From Escherichia phage AV110, in the sequence record OR352940.1: a stretch of 64,000 nt of DNA. The stretch is one strand, 5' to 3'. Made by a program: the position numbers and the translations under genes. The notes below the pieces were generated by a model, which saw only the letters and a program-made list of their open reading frames with translations, made no database searches and was not told the DNA's origin. Shown piece by piece: positions 1 to 46,634 of this stretch. Position 1 is the stretch's first letter, and each line of letters begins with the position of its first letter.

Positions 1-96
1 AATCTTTACATATCTTTCACTAATTTCCATTATGTCATTAATGAAAGTTGTTTTACCAGCATTATCCGGGCCATCTACTAAAATAATTTTAGCCAT
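1..96 (-). CDS. P-loop NTPase/kinase-like protein, N-terminal fragment (gene runs off window start)
   Basis: Minus-strand ATG at 94-96; translated N-terminus MAKIILVDGPDNAGKTTFIN has a Walker A motif (GxxxxGKT). Not UvsX-like. Confidence 0.5.
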   Translation of the reverse strand, partial: MAKIILVDGPDNAGKTTFINDIMEISERYVKI

Positions 97-97
97 T

Positions 98-997
98 TTA
101 TTCCTCGATTACGACATCTTCATATTTAGGTATATTATACGGCGAAGAAATTAAAGCATTAAAGTAGATGAACTCACCAAGACCTGGATGGAATACTTCT
201 TCAGGATTTTCGAAATATTGAATTTTCGGACGCCCTTTAAGAATTTGATAGTACTCTGTTTTAGTTGGTTTAAAAATTCGAATCAGCGCTTCTTCAGGAT
301 ACTTATTTCTGTCGAAGCTATTATTTGGATCGGTTATATAAAGCGGTTGGCCTAATTGAATTGCACATTCAACCACTTGTTCAAAACGATAGCACGGGTC
401 ACTAATTCGAAATGGATGAAAAATACCATCTAGATAAATAGGAGCCAAATCACCTACAAGACGCTGCATGATGGAAGGACGTATAACTTTCTGCGTTACG
501 ATAATCTTATTACCATCTGCACCTGCGTTAACCAGCACTTCTTTTTGACGTTCATTCAACACAGTAGTTTGAAGTGAACGATTAACCGACAACATATCAG
601 TTTTTAAGAATTCATCAATATAAAAACGTGGTTTATTAGGGTCTGCAGTGATATTGAAATTGAATTCCACATCAAAAGCGCCGTCATATCCAGTGATATC
701 TGTGATTAGAAAATCACAGTCATAATAAGCAATTAATGAATCAACCACAAATCCATTTTCAGACCAGAAATATTTACGAGTGTTATACGCGTTATCTTTA
801 TACCATAATGGAACAAACTTAAATTCTGGAAAAAGACGTTCGCATTCTTTAATATCAGATGCATTACGTGGATATGTAATCACATCACCCGGATTAGCAC
901 GGTGCAAATGAAGTTGGAAGTTGCCATCCTTAAGGATAGCATACTGTCCAGTTTCATAAGACCGCATACTCAAGATTGGTACGCGGAAAATAGCCAT
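98..997 (-). CDS. hypothetical protein (299 aa); positional candidate for the hmC-DNA glycosyltransferase (T4 beta-gt slot)
   Basis: Long minus-strand ORF next to gene 42 homologue; no motif recognised; function inferred from synteny only. Confidence 0.55.
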   Translation of the reverse strand: MAIFRVPILSMRSYETGQYAILKDGNFQLHLHRANPGDVITYPRNASDIKECERLFPEFKFVPLWYKDNAYNTRKYFWSENGFVVDSLIAYYDCDFLITDITGYDGAFDVEFNFNITADPNKPRFYIDEFLKTDMLSVNRSLQTTVLNERQKEVLVNAGADGNKIIVTQKVIRPSIMQRLVGDLAPIYLDGIFHPFRISDPCYRFEQVVECAIQLGQPLYITDPNNSFDRNKYPEEALIRIFKPTKTEYYQILKGRPKIQYFENPEEVFHPGLGEFIYFNALISSPYNIPKYEDVVIEE

Positions 998-1713
998 TAG
1001 TCAAGGAATCCTTTAACATAATCAAAATCACGTTCAAACACATGGGCACTTACCATGGTATGAGTATAATCACCAACTTCTACACCGCATTCGTTAGCGA
1101 TATAATGAAGTAATTTTCCTTGGAGATAAAAATCCAACTGCATAACAACAGCACAGTTCTGAGAACGCATATGACAGTGGGTATAAAGCTTACCATCACG
1201 AATATAATAAGTCACTGAGTCAGTACATGGATATTCAAGTGTTTCGTCTGAATCAAGCAAAGCCTGATCAGAACTTTCTAGAATTTGGAACACAACTCTT
1301 CGGGAGTTAGGCTTCTCTTTAAGTTCTTTTAGAAGAGCTGGTAATTGAGCCGCAATGCGAGGACCATAGAAAGTGTTGAAGTTCGCCGGCAAAACATCTG
1401 ATTTTGGTTTAGAAATAAATTTAGCGACATTAGGATATGTCTTAAACGCTTCTTCTGCGTTGGTACCACCAGAAATCATAAACTTCCAGAAGTCTTCGGC
1501 ATATTCATAAGAGATGCGGTTAATACGTGGGTCGGTCATTTTGAATGATGATGGAGTGTCAACAACTACTGTCATAGACCCAATTTCATTACAACGTCCA
1601 ATACGAGAATCAGTTACGAATTCCGGGTTTTCTAAAATTTCACGATTGACTGCTTTAAATGCGGTTTGAAAATCTGCGGCTTTGATATATTTCATTGTGT
1701 TATGTTTTCCCAT
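997..1713 (-). CDS. 42: dCMP hydroxymethylase-like (thymidylate synthase superfamily)
   Basis: 238 aa; segment YPCTDSVTYYIRDGKLYTHCHMRSQNCAV resembles the T4 gp42 catalytic-Cys region as I recall it; sits upstream of gene 43 as in T4. Confidence 0.75.
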   Translation of the reverse strand: MGKHNTMKYIKAADFQTAFKAVNREILENPEFVTDSRIGRCNEIGSMTVVVDTPSSFKMTDPRINRISYEYAEDFWKFMISGGTNAEEAFKTYPNVAKFISKPKSDVLPANFNTFYGPRIAAQLPALLKELKEKPNSRRVVFQILESSDQALLDSDETLEYPCTDSVTYYIRDGKLYTHCHMRSQNCAVVMQLDFYLQGKLLHYIANECGVEVGDYTHTMVSAHVFERDFDYVKGFLD

Positions 1714-1755
1714 GTTTACCTCAATACAATTTATTATATACTCAATTCGTAAAGC

Positions 1756-1995
1756 TTATTTGAATTTCTTGACAATGTTGACATAACGTAAAGCTTCAGC
1801 ATCGATACTTCCAAGAACACTATGAAGAAATGCATCAGCGTAGTATTCCAATTGAACAGGTTCTTTAATCACTTTAGCCGCTTTAGTTTCAAACAGGCCC
1901 ATCAGGGCCTTTTTAAGAATTTGTTCATTAGTGTTCAGATTCATAGTCAAAATCTCTTCATTAAGTTGGTGGTTAAAAGTTTTTCTAGAAATCAT
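1756..1995 (-). CDS. hypothetical protein (79 aa)
   Basis: ORF in operon orientation; 4-nt overlap with next gene. Confidence 0.45.
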   Translation of the reverse strand: MISRKTFNHQLNEEILTMNLNTNEQILKKALMGLFETKAAKVIKEPVQLEYYADAFLHSVLGSIDAEALRYVNIVKKFK

Positions 1996-3152
1996 TCCGG
2001 GTACCTCAAAGCGTCATCAGAGTTAGTTATATCAATAATAGATATAGAGTTTTCTGCTAACCCGTTTTTAGATAATTGACGTTTATAATATCTTTCACAA
2101 TATGTACACGTCGTCCCGCAGATTTCATTAGCACAATCGAAATCTGGATGTCTGAACCACCTTTTTTCTAAAAAGCCATCTAACAAAGAGGTTTCAATAT
2201 TTACTGTATGTGAAAACTCAGTTTCGTTTTCAAGAGTGAAAATAGTCTCTAAAGGCTTCCACAGTTCTAACAAATTACCTTCAAACTTTTCAGAAGCGTA
2301 TGCTTCAAGAACTTTCAAAATGTAGTCTGTGCTACCTGTACGTCCTGAAACTTTGAATTGAGTGATACCAATATCATTATAAAGTTTCAAATCTTGAGGA
2401 CGAACAAAACGAGTTCTCAACCAGTTAAATGGGTCTGTATCACGAGCTTTAATACAGTGCTGCATAGGATATCCGTTTAAGGATTTAGCATCATCAGCTG
2501 TAACATCAGTACTATGGAAAATATAGCAAGAGTCACGATAGCTACAATGTGTTGTATACCCTTTACCAGCATTAGAACAGAACTCATTTACAAGAACTTC
2601 AAATATTATATTGTTCTTATTGCAAAACTCTGCTGCACGCTTCAGGAAAGAAACTGAACGGTTCTTATGAATTCCACAGCAGACCTTTTTGATATTATAT
2701 TGGTCATGCAAGTATTTGATTTGAGTTACAGCATCGACATGTAGAATTGTTGAAACTTCAATCTCAATGTCTTTATTGACTTCACGAACAATTTCCATAA
2801 CAACAGGGTTAGCGATAGTAATACGCCATACGCCTATTGACCAAAGATACTGAACATAATCCTGAATAGCTTTCTTCTTCCACTCAACTAGTTCTCTTTT
2901 TGAACCAGGATTTATCGTGTTGAGTGTATAGTTAAAGCAAATACCTAATTCGTTACAACGTTTAACGTAATCTTCTAACATCTTTTTGTCAACGTCAGGA
3001 AGCCTAAAATCAGGTCTGGCTGCTACAAAAGCCATTTCTCTTGTAGAGCCATATACTTCGTTTATCAAGCTATTAGGATAGGTTTTATTGAGCTCTACGA
3101 TTTTATCAAGAAGAGCTAAATCAAAATTTGTTCCGATTTTAAAAGTATTCAT
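1992..3152 (-). CDS. Cys-rich enzyme-like protein (386 aa) with C-terminal CxxxCxYC motif; function unknown
   Basis: Long ORF; C-terminal ...CANEICGTTCTYCERYY contains a CX3CX2C Fe-S-type motif with the aromatic residue typical of radical-SAM clusters, but at the C-terminus. Confidence 0.65.
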   Translation of the reverse strand: MNTFKIGTNFDLALLDKIVELNKTYPNSLINEVYGSTREMAFVAARPDFRLPDVDKKMLEDYVKRCNELGICFNYTLNTINPGSKRELVEWKKKAIQDYVQYLWSIGVWRITIANPVVMEIVREVNKDIEIEVSTILHVDAVTQIKYLHDQYNIKKVCCGIHKNRSVSFLKRAAEFCNKNNIIFEVLVNEFCSNAGKGYTTHCSYRDSCYIFHSTDVTADDAKSLNGYPMQHCIKARDTDPFNWLRTRFVRPQDLKLYNDIGITQFKVSGRTGSTDYILKVLEAYASEKFEGNLLELWKPLETIFTLENETEFSHTVNIETSLLDGFLEKRWFRHPDFDCANEICGTTCTYCERYYKRQLSKNGLAENSISIIDITNSDDALRYPE

Positions 3153-3211
3153 TTTTTTTGCATCTCACGTTAATTGATGCGATGGTTTTTTTGCAGGTCT
3201 TACTTAAATTA

Positions 3212-3613
3212 TTATAGATTCGGTTTATACGATTTAAATGTTTCGAATTCGCCTTTATTCATAAGAGCTTTGAATTCGTCAGGACGCATAGCTTTGTCGT
3301 CGATAATCCAATCATATACTGGTTTATGTGTTAGCAAATTATGGTACTTCAAGCCAATGTTTGCCAAGTTCTGAATCAGACTTGGGAGAATGTCAATTGC
3401 TATACGACCAGGACCTACTGACTTCATACCGCGAGCAGTGTAAAGCGTTATTGTATGCCCTGCATCATACAGAGCATTAATGGCAGACACCATTTCGACG
3501 TCCGGTTTGAAGTTCACATAATCACGATTGTTATTCCACTCTGTTATACAATCATCGACATCAAAACAAAGATTAAGCATGTTTTCTACACGGTGCATTA
3601 GATTCGTTCCCAT
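3212..3613 (-). CDS. small HAD-superfamily phosphatase-like protein (KdsC-like)
   Basis: 133 aa; motif FDVDDCIT matches HAD motif I (DxDx[T/V]). Confidence 0.6.
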   Translation of the reverse strand: MGTNLMHRVENMLNLCFDVDDCITEWNNNRDYVNFKPDVEMVSAINALYDAGHTITLYTARGMKSVGPGRIAIDILPSLIQNLANIGLKYHNLLTHKPVYDWIIDDKAMRPDEFKALMNKGEFETFKSYKPNL

Positions 3614-5283
3614 TGATGAGTGATATCGCCACCGATTGGACGATAAGAAACACCAGTTTCTTTATCAGTTAGTACCCATTTACCAGGATTTTTTGTAATC
3701 AGAGTAGCCGTTACAGGTTCTGCTACGTCATAACTAATAGAGCCGTCCTGAAGTACACGGCCCATGTTACGTAATTGCTTAGTCAGAAGTTCCATACCTT
3801 TATAATATGCGGCTACCGCTTTAAGTGGATTATTCTTGAAATAACCACCTAATGCAATCCAGATAATTGCTACAGCCAAATGATGATATTCATTAAACGA
3901 ACTCAGCTTTCCATATTTGTAAACTAATGGATTGATGTTAATAGTCACATTACAAGTTGTTTCATCAATAGTAAACTGTCCCCAGGTCGGATTAGCGTTG
4001 AATTCATCATAACCTGAAACAGCGTAAAGCACTTTAGCTTCGTCGTACAATTTCGGCCCGTAAATCTTGGTTTCGCCAAAATATCCACGAGGGTCGATAA
4101 ACTTGACTTCGCCGTTATCAGTAATCATAGTATTACTGAAGTTCGGGTCACCATGAATAACAGAGTACTGTCCCTGAGAACGGTTATGATAACGAATAAG
4201 GTGTTCTAAAGCTTGTTTCAGCATTGGCTTCAGACGTCCAATCTTAGTGTAGTTCACATGTGTGATTTTACCAAATGAATCAATCAATGGTTGAATGCTT
4301 TCACAACGATCAATAACTTTCGTATAGAATTCTTTAGTGAAATCACGACGAACAGTTTCAGGACTTACAAAATAAGTGTCTGCGCTGAATTTCAGTGCAT
4401 CTAAAATTGCATCAATAATTTGTGGACGAGCAAGACTTGATTTTGATTTAATATATTCAAATGCCGGCTTACCTTTAATGCGTTCCATTTCAAAGTTATT
4501 TTCATTAACAGAAACTAACTGAGGAACTGAATCTGATTTCACTTTCAAATACCACGAAATCTCATCTTTCTGAAGAGCTCGACCCTGTTCGGTTAATGCG
4601 AATTTAGTTACAGTTTCTTCGCCAATTTCAACTGCATTAAAACTACGGTTCAGTTCACGAACTTCATGGGCCTTTTCAAGTTTAGGCATATCACCAAGGT
4701 CGATGATATTCATAAGCTCTGATTTATTGAATGCGCCGCTGTAAAGGAATTCTACGAAATCACGTCCTTTGCAGTATTCATGAATTTCCTCATCGGTAGA
4801 ACCCATATAGAATTCCCAGTCTTTGAACTGATAAATTCCTACAACATTACCGCCTGTTTCACCTACATTAGTGATATTTTCACCATCGAAATTATACCGA
4901 CATTCATCACCCTTAACATAGATTGCGTTAACATTCCAAGACCAAGAACCAAAATCGGGAATAATATCACACCAGTTAACAATTACATTATGGCCGTCTA
5001 AATCTTTGTGTAATTTAGCAAGAGCATAAGCAGAACCATACGCTTCATCAACTGTACGAATAGTCACATTGAACCCTTCTTGCTCACAATAAGCTCGAAC
5101 AGTTTCAGCAAATTTTGAATGAACTACTACAATAATTTCATCTGCGCCAAGGTCAGAATAAATTGTATACAAATTGCTCAGAATAGTGTCTTGCTTATAG
5201 TTAACAAGCACCTTAGGAATATGATGCGTTATTGGATACAAACGAGTTGCCAGTCCAGCACCAAGAATAACAGCTTTTTTCAT
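3598..5283 (-). CDS. bifunctional sugar-1-phosphate nucleotidyltransferase / APH-ChoK-like kinase
   Basis: 561 aa; N-terminus MKKAVILGAGLATRLYPIT is the G-x-G-T-R-L NDP-sugar pyrophosphorylase signature; C-terminal half has HGDPNFSN...FIDPRGYFG (Brenner HGD kinase motif plus DFG-like). Confidence 0.8.
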   Translation of the reverse strand: MKKAVILGAGLATRLYPITHHIPKVLVNYKQDTILSNLYTIYSDLGADEIIVVVHSKFAETVRAYCEQEGFNVTIRTVDEAYGSAYALAKLHKDLDGHNVIVNWCDIIPDFGSWSWNVNAIYVKGDECRYNFDGENITNVGETGGNVVGIYQFKDWEFYMGSTDEEIHEYCKGRDFVEFLYSGAFNKSELMNIIDLGDMPKLEKAHEVRELNRSFNAVEIGEETVTKFALTEQGRALQKDEISWYLKVKSDSVPQLVSVNENNFEMERIKGKPAFEYIKSKSSLARPQIIDAILDALKFSADTYFVSPETVRRDFTKEFYTKVIDRCESIQPLIDSFGKITHVNYTKIGRLKPMLKQALEHLIRYHNRSQGQYSVIHGDPNFSNTMITDNGEVKFIDPRGYFGETKIYGPKLYDEAKVLYAVSGYDEFNANPTWGQFTIDETTCNVTININPLVYKYGKLSSFNEYHHLAVAIIWIALGGYFKNNPLKAVAAYYKGMELLTKQLRNMGRVLQDGSISYDVAEPVTATLITKNPGKWVLTDKETGVSYRPIGGDITHQWERI

Positions 5284-5324
5284 GTTGAAGTCCTCATTGG
5301 TAAGTAGGAGTATTGTACACTATT

Positions 5325-5468
5325 CTAGTTAAAGCATTCATACTTTGCCTGTAGACCAATCATAATCCATCCAATTACAAGTGTTGGAATCATTACCGGA
5401 GCCGTTAAGCTCCAGTAGATAGTCATGGCAAGCATCAATAGTAAAAGTCCTATTGTTATTGCTTTCAT
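5325..5468 (-). CDS. small hydrophobic membrane protein (47 aa), below ORF-track cutoff
   Basis: ATG overlaps stop of upstream SIS gene (ATGA); GAGG upstream; product MKAITIGLLLLMLAMTIYWSLTAPVMIPTLVIGWIMIGLQAKYECFN is a predicted TM peptide. Confidence 0.35.
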   Translation of the reverse strand: MKAITIGLLLLMLAMTIYWSLTAPVMIPTLVIGWIMIGLQAKYECFN

Positions 5469-6100
5469 TGTTCGCCTCGTAACATGGCACCTAGTGCACC
5501 ACCTGGATGGAACTTAAGGAAGTCATTAGAGGTAAATCCACGTTCAGACGAAAGGTTGATAGCGAACGTATCGATAAGCGCTAACAACAATGTAGTAGAC
5601 ATTGTCGGAGCTAAAGAGTTCTCGTCAACTTCTACCGCGATACCGGTACAGAACGTATAATCAAAAAGAGCTTCGTATTCTTGTGGAATGTCAGGGTTAC
5701 AATGTAACAGAATCTGTTTAACCTGAGGACGAATCATACGAAGATGTTTAGCAACACCTATCATTTCTTCAGTCTTACCAGAACGACTGATGTGAACTAA
5801 TACATCATTAGGTGCAATAAATCCTGCGTCACCATGAGAATAATGCCCAGTGTTCAAGTACATACTTGGGATACCGAGTGAAGCAAAAGTCTCGGAAGCT
5901 TTAGTTGCGATATTAGCGTTCTTACCAACACCTGTAATAATTACTCGGCTTTCATAATTACTAAGTCCCGGGCGTCGAAGAGTTTCTAGAATAGCATTAT
6001 AACGAGCAGGGTTTTGACTAATTACTTTAGCCATAGTGGCAAGAGATGAAGCTTGTTTTACGATTGCGTCAATAGCGATAGTGATTGGTGTAGTTTTCAT
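5465..6100 (-). CDS. SIS-domain sugar-phosphate isomerase, KdsD/GutQ (arabinose-5-phosphate isomerase)-like
   Basis: 211 aa; ITGVGKNANIATK and HYSHGDAGFI..ISRSGKTEE resemble KdsD SIS motifs; C-terminal FHPGGALG is KdsD-like; no CBS domains. Confidence 0.8.
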   Translation of the reverse strand: MKTTPITIAIDAIVKQASSLATMAKVISQNPARYNAILETLRRPGLSNYESRVIITGVGKNANIATKASETFASLGIPSMYLNTGHYSHGDAGFIAPNDVLVHISRSGKTEEMIGVAKHLRMIRPQVKQILLHCNPDIPQEYEALFDYTFCTGIAVEVDENSLAPTMSTTLLLALIDTFAINLSSERGFTSNDFLKFHPGGALGAMLRGEQ

Positions 6101-12308: not shown

Positions 12309-13997
12309 TTATGAAACAGTCATTACAGTAAATCGTCCAACTTTGCTCATTTGCAAATGTTGTCCATAACGTTGAGGGTCATGGTCCCTATGAGAAATAA
12401 TGAACACGTTAGTATTTTGTAAACTTCCAAGAATGGTATCTATAGCCTTAACAGCTTCAGAATCAACTGCCCCATCAAAAACCTCATCAAGAATCAGAGT
12501 GTTGATTTTAACACCAGAGACCTTTTCAGCAATATCTCGCCATGTAAACAACAACGCGATATCAATGCGTGCTTTTTCACCTTGACTAAATGAAGCATAA
12601 CTAAAATCTTCACGACCACGTGATTTTATAGATTCATTGAATTCTTCATCAATAGAAAACACGTAATCAGCTTCCATAATTTTAAGATAATGGTTAATCT
12701 GCTTGTTGAACAGAGGCACATATTTTTTAATGATAGCACCTTTAATACCAGAATCTTTTAACATATCTGTGATAATACCACGATGGTATTTTTCAAGAAC
12801 GATATCCGATTTTGTTTTAATGATTTTATCAAGTTCTTTTTGAAGCAAAGCTATCTCATCGGCATGGTCGATAAATTCTGCTGAGGCTTGCTCTATTGCA
12901 GCTTTAACTTTCTTAGCTTTATCAATAGTGGCAATCATTGCTTGTTTCTTGGTACGAATATCAGATGCAAGGTCCTGTTTAGTCTTAACATTAGCTCTAT
13001 ATTCGTCCACTAGGACACTCAGATTATCTCTGTGACATGTAAGTTGCTCGAATGAGTGATTACATTCATGAAGCTTATCGGTAATCTTAGAGACAATAGG
13101 ATCACCCTGGTGCAACTGTGATGCGCAAGTAGGACATGTACCGCCGTCATGATACATCTTAATAACTTTGTTGTATGAGTCAATTTTAGATTTAATCAAG
13201 AATGCTTCTTGTCCTATCTTGTTGAATGCCTCAGTAGGGTCTTCATCAAGAACGATATTAAGTAGTCGCTCATTAGCTTCTTCGATTTCTGCTTTTAATG
13301 AACGAGCTTCTTTGGCTAGGTCGTCATACATATTCTGTAGACGCGCTACATTATCACCAGATAATTTCTTTTGACGTTCGATATTCTCGTTATAAATCTT
13401 AATTTGTTGGATAACACCATCTTTCTTGGCATCGAGAACTTGTCCCTGAGAATTAAGTTCGCGAACTTGAGACTTATTGATTTTATCCATTTCAGCGAGT
13501 GTGCCGACTTCTAAAAGGTCTTCGACAAGTTTTCTACGAGCAGGGGTGCTAAGAGCCATGAAAGGGGTATACCCTGCCGTCCCAAGCACAACGATCTGTT
13601 TAAAAGACGCGTATGACATTCCGATGCTACGTTCAAATTCTTCTTGGAAGTCACGACTGCTGGCAGATTCATCGAGACGAACACCGTCAACGGAGATTTC
13701 GAAAATATTGGGCTTTTGGCCACGTTTAATGAAGTATTTTTTATCATCGAATTCCATCCAAAGCTCAACTAAGAGCTCTTTCTTGTTCGTGCTATTAATG
13801 ATTTGTCCTTTCTTAACATCACGAAATGGTTTACCGAAAAGTCCGAAAGTAATGGCTTCTAACATCGTAGATTTACCACCGCCATTTTTACCGGTGATTA
13901 AGGTCTTTTGGACTTTATCTAATTGGATATCGATAGGATTCCCACCTACCGACATGATGTTTTGATAACGAACACGATTTAATTTAAATGATTTCAT
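12309..13997 (-). CDS. 46: recombination endonuclease subunit gp46 (SbcC/Rad50-like ATPase)
   Basis: 562 aa; Walker A GKNGGGKST; coiled-coil middle; C-terminal LILDEVFDG signature/Walker B region. Confidence 0.92.
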   Translation of the reverse strand: MKSFKLNRVRYQNIMSVGGNPIDIQLDKVQKTLITGKNGGGKSTMLEAITFGLFGKPFRDVKKGQIINSTNKKELLVELWMEFDDKKYFIKRGQKPNIFEISVDGVRLDESASSRDFQEEFERSIGMSYASFKQIVVLGTAGYTPFMALSTPARRKLVEDLLEVGTLAEMDKINKSQVRELNSQGQVLDAKKDGVIQQIKIYNENIERQKKLSGDNVARLQNMYDDLAKEARSLKAEIEEANERLLNIVLDEDPTEAFNKIGQEAFLIKSKIDSYNKVIKMYHDGGTCPTCASQLHQGDPIVSKITDKLHECNHSFEQLTCHRDNLSVLVDEYRANVKTKQDLASDIRTKKQAMIATIDKAKKVKAAIEQASAEFIDHADEIALLQKELDKIIKTKSDIVLEKYHRGIITDMLKDSGIKGAIIKKYVPLFNKQINHYLKIMEADYVFSIDEEFNESIKSRGREDFSYASFSQGEKARIDIALLFTWRDIAEKVSGVKINTLILDEVFDGAVDSEAVKAIDTILGSLQNTNVFIISHRDHDPQRYGQHLQMSKVGRFTVMTVS

Positions 13998-14248: not shown

Positions 14249-14477
14249 TACACGCTTCAGCCATTTTAAGAATAGAGCCGGGAGTATCGTTGTCCATTAT
14301 ATTAAAGCTAAATTCAATAGCCCAGTCGGTGCAGACATGAACTGCTTTAACTTCATTGCCTTCAACGCGTAATGGCTCAATCCAATACTTGATGGTGTTC
14401 TCGAATCCATCATCGTCTTTAACGTCTATTTCAACTTCAAGCCCGAGCCCAGCATTGTTAAATTCATCTAAAGTCAT
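14220..14477 (-). CDS. hypothetical acidic protein (85 aa)
   Basis: ORF between 46 and 47. Confidence 0.5.
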   Translation of the reverse strand: MTLDEFNNAGLGLEVEIDVKDDDGFENTIKYWIEPLRVEGNEVKAVHVCTDWAIEFSFNIMDNDTPGSILKMAEACIEDAYNDED

Positions 14478-15493
14478 TGTGTTGCCTCAATATAAAGTTC
14501 GTTGGAATATTTGACCAGCGCTTCTCTGTCTTCGTCTGAGATATCTGGAATCGCGTCAATATATTCTTTAATGATATCTTGAAGTGATTTAATCTCAATT
14601 TCCTGGTCATCATCAGATTCAACACTGTTATCAAATTTAGAAACCATACGAAGAGAGTGAACTACTTTTTCAAGTTCAGATTCAAACTTAGTCAACTCTG
14701 AATCAATTTCTGATACTATAACACGTACGGCTAGATTAGTATAATCAGAATAATTAATTTTGCCTTTAAACGGATAAGTGATTCGTCGATGCCATGTTGT
14801 TTCATTAGGAATAAATTCCATACGTTCAACATCAGTGTCAAATACCCAGAATCCGCGTGGGTCGTTCTCATCGCCTGCAGTAAGGGTCCATGGTGTCCCA
14901 ATATATTTGACGTTAGCAGCTTCAGAGATTGTGTGGAAGTGGCCGGACCAGACTTGTTTATAGGTCTTTAAGAAATCAGGTTCAAGCCCATGAGACTTCA
15001 TTCCTTTATAGAAATAAAAGCCATTTAATTCCCAGTGCCCAACACAATACGCGGCGGAAGAAGTCTTGATGTGCTCTAAGATTTCACCTGTATTTTCTTC
15101 ACACATCCATGGAACGATATCAATCAGACATCCGTCAAAATCTACAGTAGTCGGATGCTCGTAAATAGTAAAGTTTTCAAATTGAGTTAACAATTCAGAA
15201 ACAGTGTTAGGTGTTATTGTATTCTTAAACGCCATGTCATGGTTTCCTATCGTGACATGAACGTGAATGCCTGCTTTAGAAATCATATCAACGATTTCAC
15301 GATTGAATTCCATTGTACGATGTGTTATTGCTTTACGGACGTCAAACCAATCACCGTACTGAATCCAAGTTTTAATCCCGTGTTTCTTAGAGTATTCAAT
15401 TGCTTGTTGAATACCATCACGTTGAATATCTTGAACCCATGGGTCGTCTTGTTTGACTCCGATATGGAAGTCGCCTAAGTGCAAAATTTTCAT
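14474..15493 (-). CDS. 47: recombination nuclease subunit gp47 (Mre11/SbcD-like phosphoesterase)
   Basis: 339 aa; MKILHLGDFHIG... calcineurin-like phosphoesterase motifs (GDxH, GNHD). Confidence 0.92.
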   Translation of the reverse strand: MKILHLGDFHIGVKQDDPWVQDIQRDGIQQAIEYSKKHGIKTWIQYGDWFDVRKAITHRTMEFNREIVDMISKAGIHVHVTIGNHDMAFKNTITPNTVSELLTQFENFTIYEHPTTVDFDGCLIDIVPWMCEENTGEILEHIKTSSAAYCVGHWELNGFYFYKGMKSHGLEPDFLKTYKQVWSGHFHTISEAANVKYIGTPWTLTAGDENDPRGFWVFDTDVERMEFIPNETTWHRRITYPFKGKINYSDYTNLAVRVIVSEIDSELTKFESELEKVVHSLRMVSKFDNSVESDDDQEIEIKSLQDIIKEYIDAIPDISDEDREALVKYSNELYIEATQ

Positions 15494-15539
15494 ATTATTT
15501 CCTCATTAGTTAATTCATTTTATCATCCGTTTATAAAGC

Positions 15540-15563
15540 AAAAAAGGAACTCCGAAGAGTTCC
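15540..15563 (-). terminator. intrinsic terminator upstream of gene 47 (minus strand)
   Basis: GGAACUC-UUCG-GAGUUCC stem-loop followed by U6 on the minus transcript. Confidence 0.55.
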
Positions 15564-15775
15564 TATCCACATAGTACACCGTACAGAGGCTCATTTGAAC
15601 TTTTAAATCGAATGGGCTTGTACGTAATAGTTCCTTCGGCAGAAGCTTTATCATAAGACTCTTTAAAACGTCTCATTCTTTCTGCTTTGCCTTTACGGAT
15701 TTTATCGAAATTTTCAGAAGTCGGGATGTTCGTCATGCATAATCACCTCTCAGAAAATACCTAAACCGATTTCTC

Positions 15776-15997
15776 TCATCGTTTCCACCATTTCTTAACT
15801 TGAAATGAATCGACCCACACGAGTTGTTTTGGGTCTGCCTTTACAATAGGCGGACAAATTTCTGTAATAGAACCGTCGTGATATTCCTTTTCAGAAATTT
15901 TAACACAAAGAGGACCTCCCAATTTAAGGGTGAACCCTGCGTTCAGCTTCAGATGTTTAAACTTTGTTTGAACTAGCGCCATTAATGATGTCCTCAA
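15776..15997 (-). CDS. hypothetical protein (73 aa)
   Basis: ORF; start uncertain. Confidence 0.4.
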   Translation of the reverse strand: MRTSLMALVQTKFKHLKLNAGFTLKLGGPLCVKISEKEYHDGSITEICPPIVKADPKQLVWVDSFQVKKWWKR

Positions 15998-16280
15998 TAG
16001 CCTGACGAGTAGTAACCCACTGGATTTTAATTAACTTGTCATTGTATGGTTGTCGTAGAATATCCCGAGATTTCTTAATAGCATATTCGTAAGCTTCGAA
16101 GTTGTTTTGAATTGCTGCTTCTTGAGCATGTGCATAAAGACGGTTTAGTTCAAAACGATTCTTTTTAAGAATCTTTTCGGATTTTTTACGTGCTTCAGCT
16201 TCATTTTTCTTTTGGATTTCTTGTAGCATTTTAGCTACTGCATCTTCTGCTTCTTTATTTTCAATAATCTCGGTAGTCAT
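15957..16280 (-). CDS. hypothetical coiled-coil protein (107 aa)
   Basis: ORF occupying the interval where T4 carries alpha-gt. Confidence 0.5.
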   Translation of the reverse strand: MTTEIIENKEAEDAVAKMLQEIQKKNEAEARKKSEKILKKNRFELNRLYAHAQEAAIQNNFEAYEYAIKKSRDILRQPYNDKLIKIQWVTTRQAIEDIINGASSNKV

Positions 16281-16281
16281 A

Positions 16282-16491
16282 TTATCTCATTAAATTAAAA
16301 TAAAAACGTCCGTCCTCTTCAATACAGAACTCGTACTCAACTGGAGTTCCATTTATCGAAAATGACACGTCATGTGGGTTCAAAGGGTCGATGTCAAAAT
16401 TAATTTTAAATTCTCGACCCAACAGTTTTACCAAATAAGGGATTGCTTCGTCAAAAGGTTCTTCTAAGTAGTTAGAGATGTCAATTGTCAT
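16282..16491 (-). CDS. hypothetical protein (start trimmed to internal Met)
   Basis: ORF-track N-terminus overlaps gene 55 by ~95 nt; likely starts at MTIDIS. Confidence 0.4.
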
Positions 16492-17056
16492 CCTCATATA
16501 AAAAATCCAAACTAGGCGAATCGCTAACAACTTCCTTCTTTTCAGCCCCAGGAGCTTTATAAGCGGATTCTTCATAATGCGTCATTTTATCGTAGATGTC
16601 TTGAATAAACGTTTCATCTACCAACGCTACCATATCATCGTCATGACTGTCGTAGACATTATGAACGAAGTAACTATATTTCTTTGCAACTTCCTTACGT
16701 TCTTTTTTGATACGTTGGACAAAAGCATTAAAACAAGCTCGAGTTATGTATGCATGTGGGTTATTGTACTTAGTTTCGTCGAAATTATGAAGTCCCTTAA
16801 TAGAGGCTTCAATCCCATCTGCAATCATCTCCTGCTTCCAAGACTGGGTATATCCTGAAAAGTTGAAACGTTTGGACAGGCCTTCGGCGATAAGCATAAT
16901 TGCTAAACCGATAGTATCATTCTGACGAATAATTTTGTTTGGGTCTTTATTATTTAAGAGCTCCTTTTTCCACTCGATTATAGCGGCGAGAAGCTCTTTA
17001 TTATTCACATAGTTATTTTTAGGTTTTTGTTCAGTCATAAGTACCTCTTGGCTCAA
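16481..17056 (-). CDS. 55: late-transcription sigma factor gp55
   Basis: 191 aa; [27 protein letters not shown]...[35 protein letters not shown] matches T4 gp55 as recalled; exact start (M1 vs M7) uncertain. Confidence 0.9.
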
Positions 17057-28379: not shown

Positions 28380-29381
28380 TTATTTCAGTAAAGTTACTTC
28401 AGAGATTTCCTCCCAACCATCTTTATCAGTTGAAATAAAATCTGCTACATAAAGAGCGGTACGTAATGATACATTGCGAAGACGAGATACATTAGCCTTC
28501 ATCCAGGACAATGCTTTATACGTTTCTGCATCAGTCAGACCACGTTTCTGCATCATGTCAGTAGATAATATTACATCTTCAACTCGAACCATAATCTCTT
28601 CATTAGAGTGTACTCCAAGGTCGAGATACACTGAGCGAGATACTAAAGCTTGAAGGTGTGGAGCAAGTTTCGAACCGCGTTCTAACTCTTTATCGATATC
28701 AACGTTTGTAATGAAAACGATAGTACCTTCAAACTCAAATTCTTTATCAATACCCTTATCATCGAGATAAGATGACGCAGTGCTCCAACAAACTTTGCGT
28801 TTATCTCCAGTATCTAATGCTGCTTTAAGAAGATTCAAGATGTCCATATCTGAGAATACGTCAACGTCATCGATTAAGAGAACGCTGTCTGCATCACGGT
28901 TGAGCCAAAGTTGTTCGTAAAGGCCAATACCAGAGATTTTACCATTAATGCTTTTGTATTTGATGAAACCATTATCATTAGCATTATTAAGTGCTTTATC
29001 CAGAGAATACGTCTTACCAATACCGGCTGCACCTGAAATAATGAGTGAACGAATTTTGCCATCGATAATGCCATTCGTCATCATGTTCATTACTTTAAAG
29101 CGTTTGTTGATACGAGTTTTCATATCTTCAGTGCTTTCAACAACTGCAACTGGTGATGTCTCAACTCCTTCCATTACGATGTCTGATTTGAAGACCCATA
29201 CTCCACGTTCAGAACCATCAATCATAACGAAAATTTTACCGTCACCTAAGTGGGAACATTCAGGATTAAGCTTTGCTGGGAACCAGGTCTTTGTGGCAAC
29301 ATAAGAACCAGAGATTTCGTTATTACGATAGATACCTTTTTTGATTTGAACGTTGAACATTTTATTCTCCAATTTACTCAT
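28380..29381 (-). CDS. P-loop ATPase (333 aa)
   Basis: Walker A GAAGIGKTY, Walker B LLIDDVD. Confidence 0.65.
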   Translation of the reverse strand: MSKLENKMFNVQIKKGIYRNNEISGSYVATKTWFPAKLNPECSHLGDGKIFVMIDGSERGVWVFKSDIVMEGVETSPVAVVESTEDMKTRINKRFKVMNMMTNGIIDGKIRSLIISGAAGIGKTYSLDKALNNANDNGFIKYKSINGKISGIGLYEQLWLNRDADSVLLIDDVDVFSDMDILNLLKAALDTGDKRKVCWSTASSYLDDKGIDKEFEFEGTIVFITNVDIDKELERGSKLAPHLQALVSRSVYLDLGVHSNEEIMVRVEDVILSTDMMQKRGLTDAETYKALSWMKANVSRLRNVSLRTALYVADFISTDKDGWEEISEVTLLK

Positions 29382-29790: not shown

Positions 29791-30780
29791 TTATTTATAG
29801 TAAGAATTATGATTTTCGAGATAGACTTGCTCAAGGAAATCATCCCAGAAACTCATATCTACTTTTTGTTGCATACCATTCTTGGCAGCTTGTTCTGACG
29901 CATGTTCAACTTGGTCAACGATATCTTCTAGGAATTCTTGTACAGTTTTAAACGTATGTTTACCAAGCTTAACATCGAGAATAAATGGAGCATCCTGAAG
30001 TGGGTAAACCAGGTCGCCGGTTTTGTAAATTTCTAATAGTTGAAGTCCACCACGACATGCATGACTCAATGCTTTCCAGTCAATACCTTCGTTAGCTTCT
30101 GCCTTACGAGCACGTTCACCGTAGTTCTCTTCCAGTTTAACCAGGATGGCATTGAACTCTTTATTGGTTAACGTATCTTGGAATTTACGGTCTAACAGAT
30201 TATAGAATGTTTGCTTACCTGTTTTCTCGTTTTCGGTTTCAACCCACGAAGCAAATTCACCTACAGGCAGAACATTCTTCATATGTGATAAACGAATTAC
30301 TGCACCATTATCAAAGTATTGTCCCCATTCATTAGAACGTTTAAGGGCTTGACGAAGAACAGCCAGTCGAGAACCCTTGACACCGTATTTAGAAGCTTGC
30401 TTACGGACATACCCTAAATAAGATTTCATGTTAGTGGTATAGAAGCGAGACCTGTTATCTTGAATATACTTCCATACATCAGGCAAATCAGATTTAACTA
30501 CTAGACTTTGCGGAGTGTGAAGCATATCTAATGCGACGGTTTCACCATCCGCAGCTAGTTTAAAGAAATATTTGAGACTATACAATTCATGGTCTACGTC
30601 GTCTTTTGTGTTCTTAGAAGATGTGTTATTCGTGTTCTTGCTCATGTGTTCTTTAACGTTACCGGTCAAAATATCACGAGCATGAGGGATATAAATTTCT
30701 TTAAAATCTACGTCAGATTCAGGAGTAGACGTTCCATAAAGGTGGCTACCAAAGTAGCCTTTCATAATTGTTTTCATCAT
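29791..30780 (-). CDS. Pol-beta-superfamily nucleotidyltransferase-fold protein (329 aa)
   Basis: N-terminal GYFGSHLYGTSTPESDVDF fits the GS-x9-13-DxD NTase signature; helical C-terminal region. Confidence 0.6.
   Translation of the reverse strand: MMKTIMKGYFGSHLYGTSTPESDVDFKEIYIPHARDILTGNVKEHMSKNTNNTSSKNTKDDVDHELYSLKYFFKLAADGETVALDMLHTPQSLVVKSDLPDVWKYIQDNRSRFYTTNMKSYLGYVRKQASKYGVKGSRLAVLRQALKRSNEWGQYFDNGAVIRLSHMKNVLPVGEFASWVETENEKTGKQTFYNLLDRKFQDTLTNKEFNAILVKLEENYGERARKAEANEGIDWKALSHACRGGLQLLEIYKTGDLVYPLQDAPFILDVKLGKHTFKTVQEFLEDIVDQVEHASEQAAKNGMQQKVDMSFWDDFLEQVYLENHNSYYK
29792..29799 (-). promoter_or_regulatory. T4-type late promoter (TATAAATA on minus strand)
   Basis: Plus-strand TATTTATA about 33 nt upstream of the 29759 start; GAGG SD between. 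Confidence 0.45.
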
Positions 30781-46072: not shown

Positions 46073-46634
46073 GGATTAAATTGTTAGTGAAATTAGGACT
46101 AACAACCATAGTTTCATAAAGCGCATCAATAGCACTTAAAGCATCAACTCTTTTAAGCAAAGGCTTGCCTTCATACATAGTTTCAGAATCGACGATTAAA
46201 GTGAAGTAGTATTTTTTATTATTGACCAGAACTTCTGTATCAATATAAAACATGTTAGACCTTAAAAGCTTATCTCTAAAACCATAATAATCTTTAGAGC
46301 GTTCGCTGATATATTCCCATTCGGTGTTTAAACAACAAACAGACCATGTAGGAGCAACGAAATCGGTGAATCTAATATCATGGTCTGCAACTAGTTTAGC
46401 AATAGCTCCGATATCATGAATCATAATACCTGGGGCTAATAAAGATTTTCTGCTATGGCTAGCTGTTTTCTCAGTAGTCTCATAAGAAGACGACCAGTAC
46501 CATTTACGCCCAGTTGCAACATATCGTAATGAATCAACTAAAGACGTAGGTGGATTTACCTTATCTCGGAACTCTTCGAACATTGAGTCAATATCATTAT
46601 TTTGGTTTCGCATGTTAACTCCTTTATTATCCAA
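46011..46634 (-). CDS. hypothetical protein (207 aa) with FIMECR motif near C-terminus
   Basis: ...LILEQFIMECREYVKANPIHAK. Confidence 0.5.
   Translation of the reverse strand: MDNKGVNMRNQNNDIDSMFEEFRDKVNPPTSLVDSLRYVATGRKWYWSSSYETTEKTASHSRKSLLAPGIMIHDIGAIAKLVADHDIRFTDFVAPTWSVCCLNTEWEYISERSKDYYGFRDKLLRSNMFYIDTEVLVNNKKYYFTLIVDSETMYEGKPLLKRVDALSAIDALYETMVVSPNFTNNLILEQFIMECREYVKANPIHAK

Follow-up and report, generated by a model that had tools for sequence, protein, structure and literature searches.

Phage T4 carries its alpha-glucosyltransferase gene, a-gt, between the genes 47 and 55, the complete order of this locus being 55, a-gt.5, a-gt.4, a-gt.3, a-gt.2, mobB, a-gt, 47.1, 47. Is this gene actually absent from the corresponding interval of Escherichia phage AV110 (sequence record OR352940.1) and, if so, what became of it and how is the DNA of the phage modified in place of glucosylation? 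We addressed these questions in a stretch of 64,000 nucleotides of this genome, referred to as the window throughout. All genes around the interval are located on the minus strand. Those which delimit and fill it, as well as two associated signals, are the following (percentages denote identity):

14474-15493, minus strand: gene 47, SbcD-like recombination endonuclease subunit and lower boundary of the interval, 339 aa; 75.8% to T4 gp47, 99.4% to RB69 gp47
15517-15540, minus strand: middle-promoter-like motif upstream of gene 47, composed of TGCTTTA at 15534-15540 (MotA-box-like), an 11-nt spacer and TAAAAT at 15517-15522
15545-15564, minus strand: Rho-independent terminator hairpin with an 8-bp stem, a UUCG loop and a U6 tail (terminator scan and RNA fold)
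15563-15736, minus strand: a-gt.2 orthologue, 57 aa; 74% to T4 a-gt.2 (E 5e-29), 93% to RB69; phrog_2140
15776-15982, minus strand: a-gt.3 orthologue, 68 aa; 69% to T4 a-gt.3 (E 3e-34), 98.5% to RB69; phrog_1648
15957-16280, minus strand: a-gt.4 orthologue, 107 aa; 58% to T4 a-gt.4 (E 3e-38), Pfam DUF2654 (E 1e-27), 100% to RB69
16282-16497, minus strand: a-gt.5 orthologue, 71 aa; 47% to T4 a-gt.5 (E 9e-19), Pfam DUF5491, 100% to RB69 over 69 aa
16481-17038, minus strand: gene 55, late sigma factor and upper boundary of the interval; about 89.2-90.7% to T4 gp55, 99.5% to RB69 gp55

That the four small genes are orthologous to a-gt.2 through a-gt.5 was established by pairwise BLASTP against T4 with E values between 9e-19 and 3e-38. 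A preliminary description of the sequence had listed three ORFs of 73, 107 and 97 aa together with a terminator. While the terminator is clearly present, the ORF inventory has to be revised to four genes, as the 57-aa ORF at 15563-15736, i.e. the a-gt.2 orthologue, had been overlooked. In addition, the supposed 73-aa ORF, which starts from a TTG, gives way to the 68-aa a-gt.3 gene starting at the ATG at 15982, shorter models being likewise used in the annotations of Bas47 and RB69. The supposed 97-aa ORF runs too far into gene 55, since both the homology to T4 a-gt.5 and the annotations of RB69 and Bas47 define a gene of 71 aa at 16282-16497. The latter shares 17 nt with the 3' end of gene 55, and the true gap between the genes 47 and 55 extends from 15494 to 16480 instead of from 15494 to 16575. 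None of the four small genes has a function assigned in PHROGs, and a full-text literature search returned no study addressing what a-gt.2 to a-gt.5 do.

The a-gt slot itself, delimited by the start codon of gene 47 at 15493 and by a-gt.2, amounts to a 69-nt intergenic region. The terminator hairpin, which overlaps the stop codon of a-gt.2, folds with -13.9 kcal/mol (z = -3.43), a value reached by none of 200 shuffled sequences. The established pattern of T4 middle promoters consists of a MotA box and a -10 element, and the motif read from the sequence at 15517-15540 conforms to this consensus to an extent which makes it a candidate middle promoter. A sigma-70 promoter scan returned 7 sites against 6.4 expected from shuffles and hence no enrichment; therefore, the middle-promoter reading stands on the MotA-box pattern and not on the scan. 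An Rfam scan of positions 15300-16800 (E <= 1) detected no RNA family, and the repeat scan of the 47-55 interval yielded short two-copy matches only, none of which is noteworthy.

Comparison with T4 reveals how little separates the two loci. The genes 47 and 55 and the four a-gt.x genes of T4 are orthologous to those of the window at 47-91% amino-acid identity, and T4 also possesses the equivalent hairpin 3' of its a-gt.2 as well as the TGCTTTA promoter-like motif. According to BLASTN, the homology to T4 is continuous over the interval except for one position, where 34 nt of the window (15496-15529) replace 2,252 nt of T4. All that is absent from the interval compared with T4 is mobB, a-gt and 47.1 (about 2.25 kb). 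No remnant of an a-gt pseudogene is present in the gap between 47 and 55, the 34-nt junction constituting the only break in T4 homology. The claim that a-gt is missing between 47 and 55 is thereby confirmed, as there is no such gene in the interval and no credible tblastn match of T4 a-gt within the 64 kb. Elsewhere, imm and imm.1 are relocated relative to the T4 gene order.

Going by its sequence, the phage is a member of Mosigvirus, i.e. an RB69-like T-even phage. A nucleotide search with the 2.8 kb surrounding the 47-55 interval matched 749 phage records, among which the closest are Mosigvirus, namely the mar005P1 strains (99.3% identity) and JK45, NBG1 and Bas47/AlbertHofmann (98.6-98.9%). 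Over the 47-55 interval the DNA of RB69 is 98.3% identical to that of the window, and the proteins gp47, a-gt.2, a-gt.3, a-gt.4, a-gt.5 and gp55 share 93-100% identity with their RB69 counterparts. In the RefSeq record of RB69 the gene order reads 47, a-gt.2, a-gt.3, a-gt.4, a-gt.5, 55 with no a-gt annotated, so that both regions agree in gene order and in lacking a-gt, and exhibit point differences only. It is practically inconceivable that a faulty assembly or a deletion acquired in the laboratory accounts for the missing gene in this one isolate, a reading in favour of which nothing was found. The uninterrupted layout of 47, a-gt.2-5 and 55 is found in 146 independent phage records, each of which covers at least 80% of the query in one continuous match, and 135 of all matching records are at least 95% identical. 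Moreover, RB69, Bas47, JK45 and the mar005P1 strains, which share this layout, stem from different laboratories and countries. The absence of a-gt at this position is correct but ordinary and has been known since the description of the RB69 genome. The papers covering RB69 and the genus (PMC6024577, PMC8594841, PMC13326640, PMC13390438) already report it, together with the lack of b-gt, the arabinose cluster and the revision of the base to 5-hydroxycytosine.

The search for glucosyltransferase genes was extended to two proxies of the whole genome. One combines the window with positions 42001-150000 of mar005P1 (the complementary 104 kb), the overlaps at both ends of the window being 99.0-99.6% identical; the other is the entire genome of Bas47. 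In both of them, tblastn produced no match at E <= 0.1 for T4 b-gt, mobB, 47.1 and segA, no match for the beta-alpha-gt of RB14 (best E 0.85), and no credible match for T4 a-gt, for which a single match of about 29 bits occurred in a 207-aa ORF without any Pfam domain. A more sensitive tblastn search of the window (word size 2, E up to 100), with T4 a-gt and b-gt as queries, returned nothing beyond noise. Two weak matches at 28995-29234 and 46347-46526 were considered as possible remnants of a-gt and rejected (about 29 bits, E about 0.01-0.06, with best values of 0.011 and 0.015), as the respective ORFs contain no glycosyltransferase Pfam domain; one of them shows a weak AAA/STAND-NTPase and HTH assignment, the other no Pfam domain at all. 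The curated annotation of Bas47 lists no glucosyltransferase, its sole transferase being a "putative hmC-arabinosyltransferase" between rIIA.1 and gene 39. In RB69, as reported by Thomas et al. 2018 (PMC6024577), BLASTP detects no counterpart of T4 a-gt, T4 b-gt or T2 ba-gt. The whole-genome check for glucosyltransferases, performed on these proxies, thus yields no orthologue of a-gt, b-gt or beta-alpha-gt. The preliminary description had regarded an a-gt or b-gt homologue elsewhere in the genome as contradicting its view. Taken literally, such homologues do exist, yet solely in the form of remote GT-B relatives which are candidates for arabinosyltransferases.

These candidates lead to the beginning of the window, where genes for cytosine modification and, by prediction, for the supply of UDP-arabinose are found:

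98-997, minus strand: glycosyltransferase of GT-B fold, occupying the position of beta-gt in T4, 299 aa; intact homologue of RB69 gp46:47
997-1713, minus strand: enzyme of the thymidylate synthase family at the place of gene 42; Pfam Thymidylat_synt (E 2.4e-15), homologue of RB69 gp48
1992-3152, minus strand: U32-like protein; Pfam Peptidase_U32, homologue of RB69 gp50
3212-3613, minus strand: HAD-type phosphatase; homologue of RB69 gp51
3598-5283, minus strand: nucleotidyltransferase and kinase fusion; Pfam NTP_transferase and weak kinase matches, homologue of RB69 gp52:53
5465-6100, minus strand: SIS arabinose-5-phosphate isomerase; Pfam SIS, homologue of RB69 gp55

The proteins encoded from 1992 to 6100 share 97-99% identity with RB69 gp50, gp51, gp52:53 and gp55. 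The HAD phosphatase, the nucleotidyltransferase-kinase and the SIS isomerase have been proposed to constitute a pathway to UDP-arabinofuranose (PMC13326640, PMC6024577). This resemblance supports the assignment of positions 1-6100 as the cytosine modification cluster responsible. The earlier expectation that any decoration of the base originates from this region holds for the cluster, which is 92-99% identical to RB69 gp46-gp55, while a second transferase is located outside of it, near rIIA. This putative arabinosyltransferase, the homologue of RB69 gp3/ORF003c between rIIA.1 and gene 39, is found with 99.5% identity in mar005P1 and with 97.8% in Bas47 and, going by these two genomes, is very probably encoded in the AV110 genome beyond the window.

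Regarding the beta-gt slot, the gene had been described as missing. Indeed, tblastn reveals no homologue of b-gt, and the slot between uvsX and gene 42 accommodates neither b-gt nor ba-gt; it is, however, not vacant but taken by the gene of the 299-aa GT-B transferase (98-997), which adjoins the synthase gene at 997-1713, and by a thymidylate-kinase-like gene. The transferase is to be compared with GT4-like retaining GT-B enzymes (MshA, 3c4q; sucrose-phosphate synthase, 6kih; the glycosyltransferase of phage HY126, 9iqz), to which its sequence identity amounts to only 7-12%. Its length of 299 aa is below that of typical GT-B enzymes, and the protein gives no match to a Pfam glycosyltransferase. 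Lee et al. 2026 (PMC13326640) proposed RB69 gp46:47 to be the first DNA arabinosyltransferase, and reported that purified single glycosyltransferases of DLP3 are inactive on 5hoC DNA. We propose the 98-997 protein as a candidate for the first arabinosyltransferase and not as an orthologue of a-gt or b-gt. Both this transferase and the nucleotidyltransferase-kinase (561 aa) are unsplit ORFs in the window, whereas each of them is halved in the RefSeq record of RB69, a splitting of gp46:47 and gp52:53 which Lee et al. 2026 put down to sequencing errors (PMC13326640). The window thus adds one more member of the genus in which these two genes are intact.

Two readings of the modification have to be weighed against that of an arabinosylated 5-hydroxycytosine. 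One of them holds that the base is arabinosyl-hydroxymethylcytosine and, accordingly, that 997-1713 encodes an ordinary dCMP hydroxymethylase. This is how Thomas et al. 2018 read their results (PMC6024577), the name "dCMP hydroxymethylase" appears in the GenBank annotations of relatives, and the protein does belong to the thymidylate synthase family. Nevertheless, this reading is highly unlikely. The 997-1713 protein shares merely 24.8% identity with T4 gp42, compared to 68-91% for the neighbouring core genes, and 98.7% with RB69 gp48. For the latter, LC-MS against a 5hodC standard, incorporation of 18O2 and the presence of a bound flavin demonstrated that it makes 5-hydroxy-dCMP and not 5-hydroxymethyl-dCMP (PMC13326640). 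The DNA of RB69, analysed by LC-MS and NMR, carries mono- and di-arabosyl groups which are ether-linked to 5-hydroxycytosine (PMC13326640). In the DNA of the Mosigvirus NP, a relative of Bas47, LC-MS revealed 5-ara-dC and 5-ara-ara-dC at 1:4, and the authors of that independent study call the former hmC assignment erroneous (PMC13390438). The preliminary description, which had spoken of a decoration of hmC, requires correction in this respect: going by the near-identity of the enzyme in the gene 42 position to RB69 gp48, the modified base of AV110 is probably not hmC.

According to the other reading, a-gt or b-gt has moved to a place beyond the 64-kb window, from where it would still provide for glucosylation of the DNA. 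The search of the other approximately 104 kb did make use of proxy genomes, and the gene order departs from that of T4 in places, as exemplified by imm and imm.1. Still, we regard such a relocation as extremely improbable, since neither the 104 kb of mar005P1 nor Bas47 gives a tblastn match for a-gt, b-gt or ba-gt, RB69 contains none of these genes according to Thomas et al. (PMC6024577), and LC-MS of the DNA of RB69 and NP detected arabinosylated cytosines only (PMC13326640, PMC13390438), arabinosyl-5-hydroxycytosine being cited for Bas46 and Bas47, too. The assertion that phages of this type do not glucosylate their DNA is supported, all three T-even glucosyltransferase families (T4 a-gt, T4 b-gt and the RB14/T2-type beta-alpha-gt) being unmatched in the proxies; for AV110 itself, the modification is deduced from relatives of 97-99% identity. 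While T4 DNA contains glucosyl-hmC, Mosigvirus DNA is reported to contain arabinosyl-5-hydroxycytosine. Carrying arabinose instead of glucose alters the range of defences (restriction, type IV and CRISPR) to which the DNA is exposed, and explains the inability of RB69 to exchange genes with T4. Arabinosylated DNA is cleaved by BrxU according to published data (PMC13390438). For the sequence at hand, the main value lies in the corrected annotation, comprising the four small genes, the GT-B transferase in the beta-gt slot and a 5-hydroxy-dCMP synthase in place of a dCMP hydroxymethylase.

Taken together, AV110 is a Mosigvirus whose a-gt slot is empty; very likely, its DNA contains arabinosyl-5-hydroxycytosine in place of a glucosylated base, and its lineage has lost the a-gt cassette. 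In this genus no gene separates a-gt.2 from gene 47, where T4 and at least two other genera of the Tevenvirinae carry a-gt; a-gt.2 to a-gt.5 are kept, and one single module of terminator and middle-promoter-like motif links a-gt.2 directly to gene 47. Relying on another hypermodification of its cytosines, the phage would need neither a-gt nor b-gt: the divergent thymidylate-synthase homologue (997-1713) is predicted to provide 5-hydroxy-dCMP, the cluster at 1992-6100 would supply UDP-arabinose, and the GT-B transferase at 98-997, together with the second transferase near rIIA, would attach one or two arabinoses.

As to the direction of the change, two more distant genera are informative. Klebsiella phage Roth79 (66.8% identity to T4 a-gt) and Erwinia phage Cronus (Roskildevirus; 57.3%) both carry a-gt in exactly this slot, with the last small ORF on one side and gene 47 on the other, and mobB and 47.1 are absent from both. 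Among the four taxa, T4 and the window are closest to each other (gp46 82.5%, gp47 75.8%, gp55 89.2%), while Roth79 and Cronus share 65-79% identity with either of them in these three proteins. Since a-gt is present in T4 as well as in the two more distant genera, a loss in the Mosigvirus lineage would be the most parsimonious history. We infer this direction from the identities of three genes among four taxa, within a group of T4-like genomes which swap modules often. The converse history, in which the empty site is ancestral and the a-gt cassette a mobile module that inserted in other lineages and never in Mosigvirus, appears unlikely. It would be in line with T4 a-gt adjoining mobB, a gene for an HNH homing endonuclease, and with the repeated terminator/promoter modules around a-gt, which could mediate insertion of the cassette. 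Roth79 and Cronus, however, have a-gt in the slot without mobB, and the divergence of a-gt (57-67% identity) follows that of the flanking core genes. Furthermore, the outgroups bearing a-gt are more distant from both T4 and the window than these two are from one another, so that an ancestrally empty site would call for a minimum of two independent insertions at one and the same position.

Loss of the cassette from the Mosigvirus lineage may plausibly have taken place via recombination between the near-identical terminator/promoter modules which flank a-gt elsewhere. Both in T4 and in Roth79, either flank of a-gt displays a CUUCGG hairpin followed by (T/A)GCT(T/A)T, and in three of these four flanks a -10-like TAAAAT or TATAAT is situated 11-12 nt past the box. 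Judged from the four-taxon comparison, it is plausible that recombination between two such modules would delete a-gt cleanly, and the repeats bracketing the gene in other genera would offer a simple route for its loss. We tentatively put forward, as a possibility somewhat short of even, that the hairpin and MotA-box module of the window might be what remained after the a-gt cassette had been excised precisely by recombination between the bracketing modules as they are seen in T4, Roth79 and partly in Cronus. The regulatory modules may then have served as break-and-join points when an ancestor with glucosyl-hmC switched to arabinosyl-5-hydroxycytosine. The window contains one such module, consisting of the hairpin, TGCTTTA and the -10-like element. 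Its 5' part is closest to the T4 copy proximal to a-gt.2, and its 3' part (CGGATGATAAAATGA) can be aligned to those copies which precede T4 47.1 and Roth79 47.

Two genes of the arabinosylation cluster are each encoded by one uninterrupted ORF in the window, namely the GT-B fold glycosyltransferase gene (98-997; 299 aa) and the gene of the nucleotidyltransferase-kinase fusion (3598-5283; 561 aa). In the RB69 RefSeq record, in contrast, their counterparts are each present in two pieces, annotated as p046/p047 and p052/p053, respectively. Lee et al. (PMC13326640) attribute these splits to sequencing errors. Since both reading frames are unsplit in the window, their comparison with RB69 independently supports this statement. 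Within the same cluster, positions 1992-3152 encode a U32-peptidase-like protein (Pfam E 7e-11) which shares 99% identity with RB69 gp50. The published pathway assigns no step to this protein, for which Lee et al. give just the label “sugar or heterocycle reductase” (PMC13326640). An ORF of 79 aa (1756-1995) adjoins the U32-like gene.

In T4, imm and imm.1 are located between genes 42 and 43 (12374-13014 of the T4 record L002), whereas in RB69-type phages this space is filled by arabinose-supply genes (window 1756-6100). In the latter phages imm/imm.1 instead adjoin sp and the 61.x genes, as seen in Bas47 (L004 39793-40471).

At the junction between a-gt.2 and gene 47, the place homologous to the start codon of T4 47.1 harbours merely a two-codon mini-ORF, ATG AAT TAA (15506-15514); gene 47.1, encoding a membrane protein of 46 aa, is thus missing, as is a-gt. 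A repeat scan revealed that the junction motif GCTTTATAAACGGAT (15525-15539) recurs as an inverted 15-nt copy, matching at 14 of 15 bases, at 16554-16568. This copy is on the opposite strand, within the 3'-terminal part of gene 55, and may have arisen by chance.

The nrdC-tk variable region contains two ORFs of about 330 aa each (28380-29381 and 29791-30780), both of which are annotated as “hypothetical” in Bas47. While one of them yields weak AAA/STAND-NTPase and HTH matches, all under the Pfam cut-offs, the other contains an RlaP domain (RNA-repair-pathway nucleotidyltransferase; E 6e-13).

Outside the window, Bas47 carries a “putative aldolase” gene directly downstream of the dCMP deaminase gene (L003 35550-36542), which the annotation of mar005P1 lacks at the equivalent position (L010 47297-48114). 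Judged from these records, the gene appears to be a variable insertion inside Mosigvirus.
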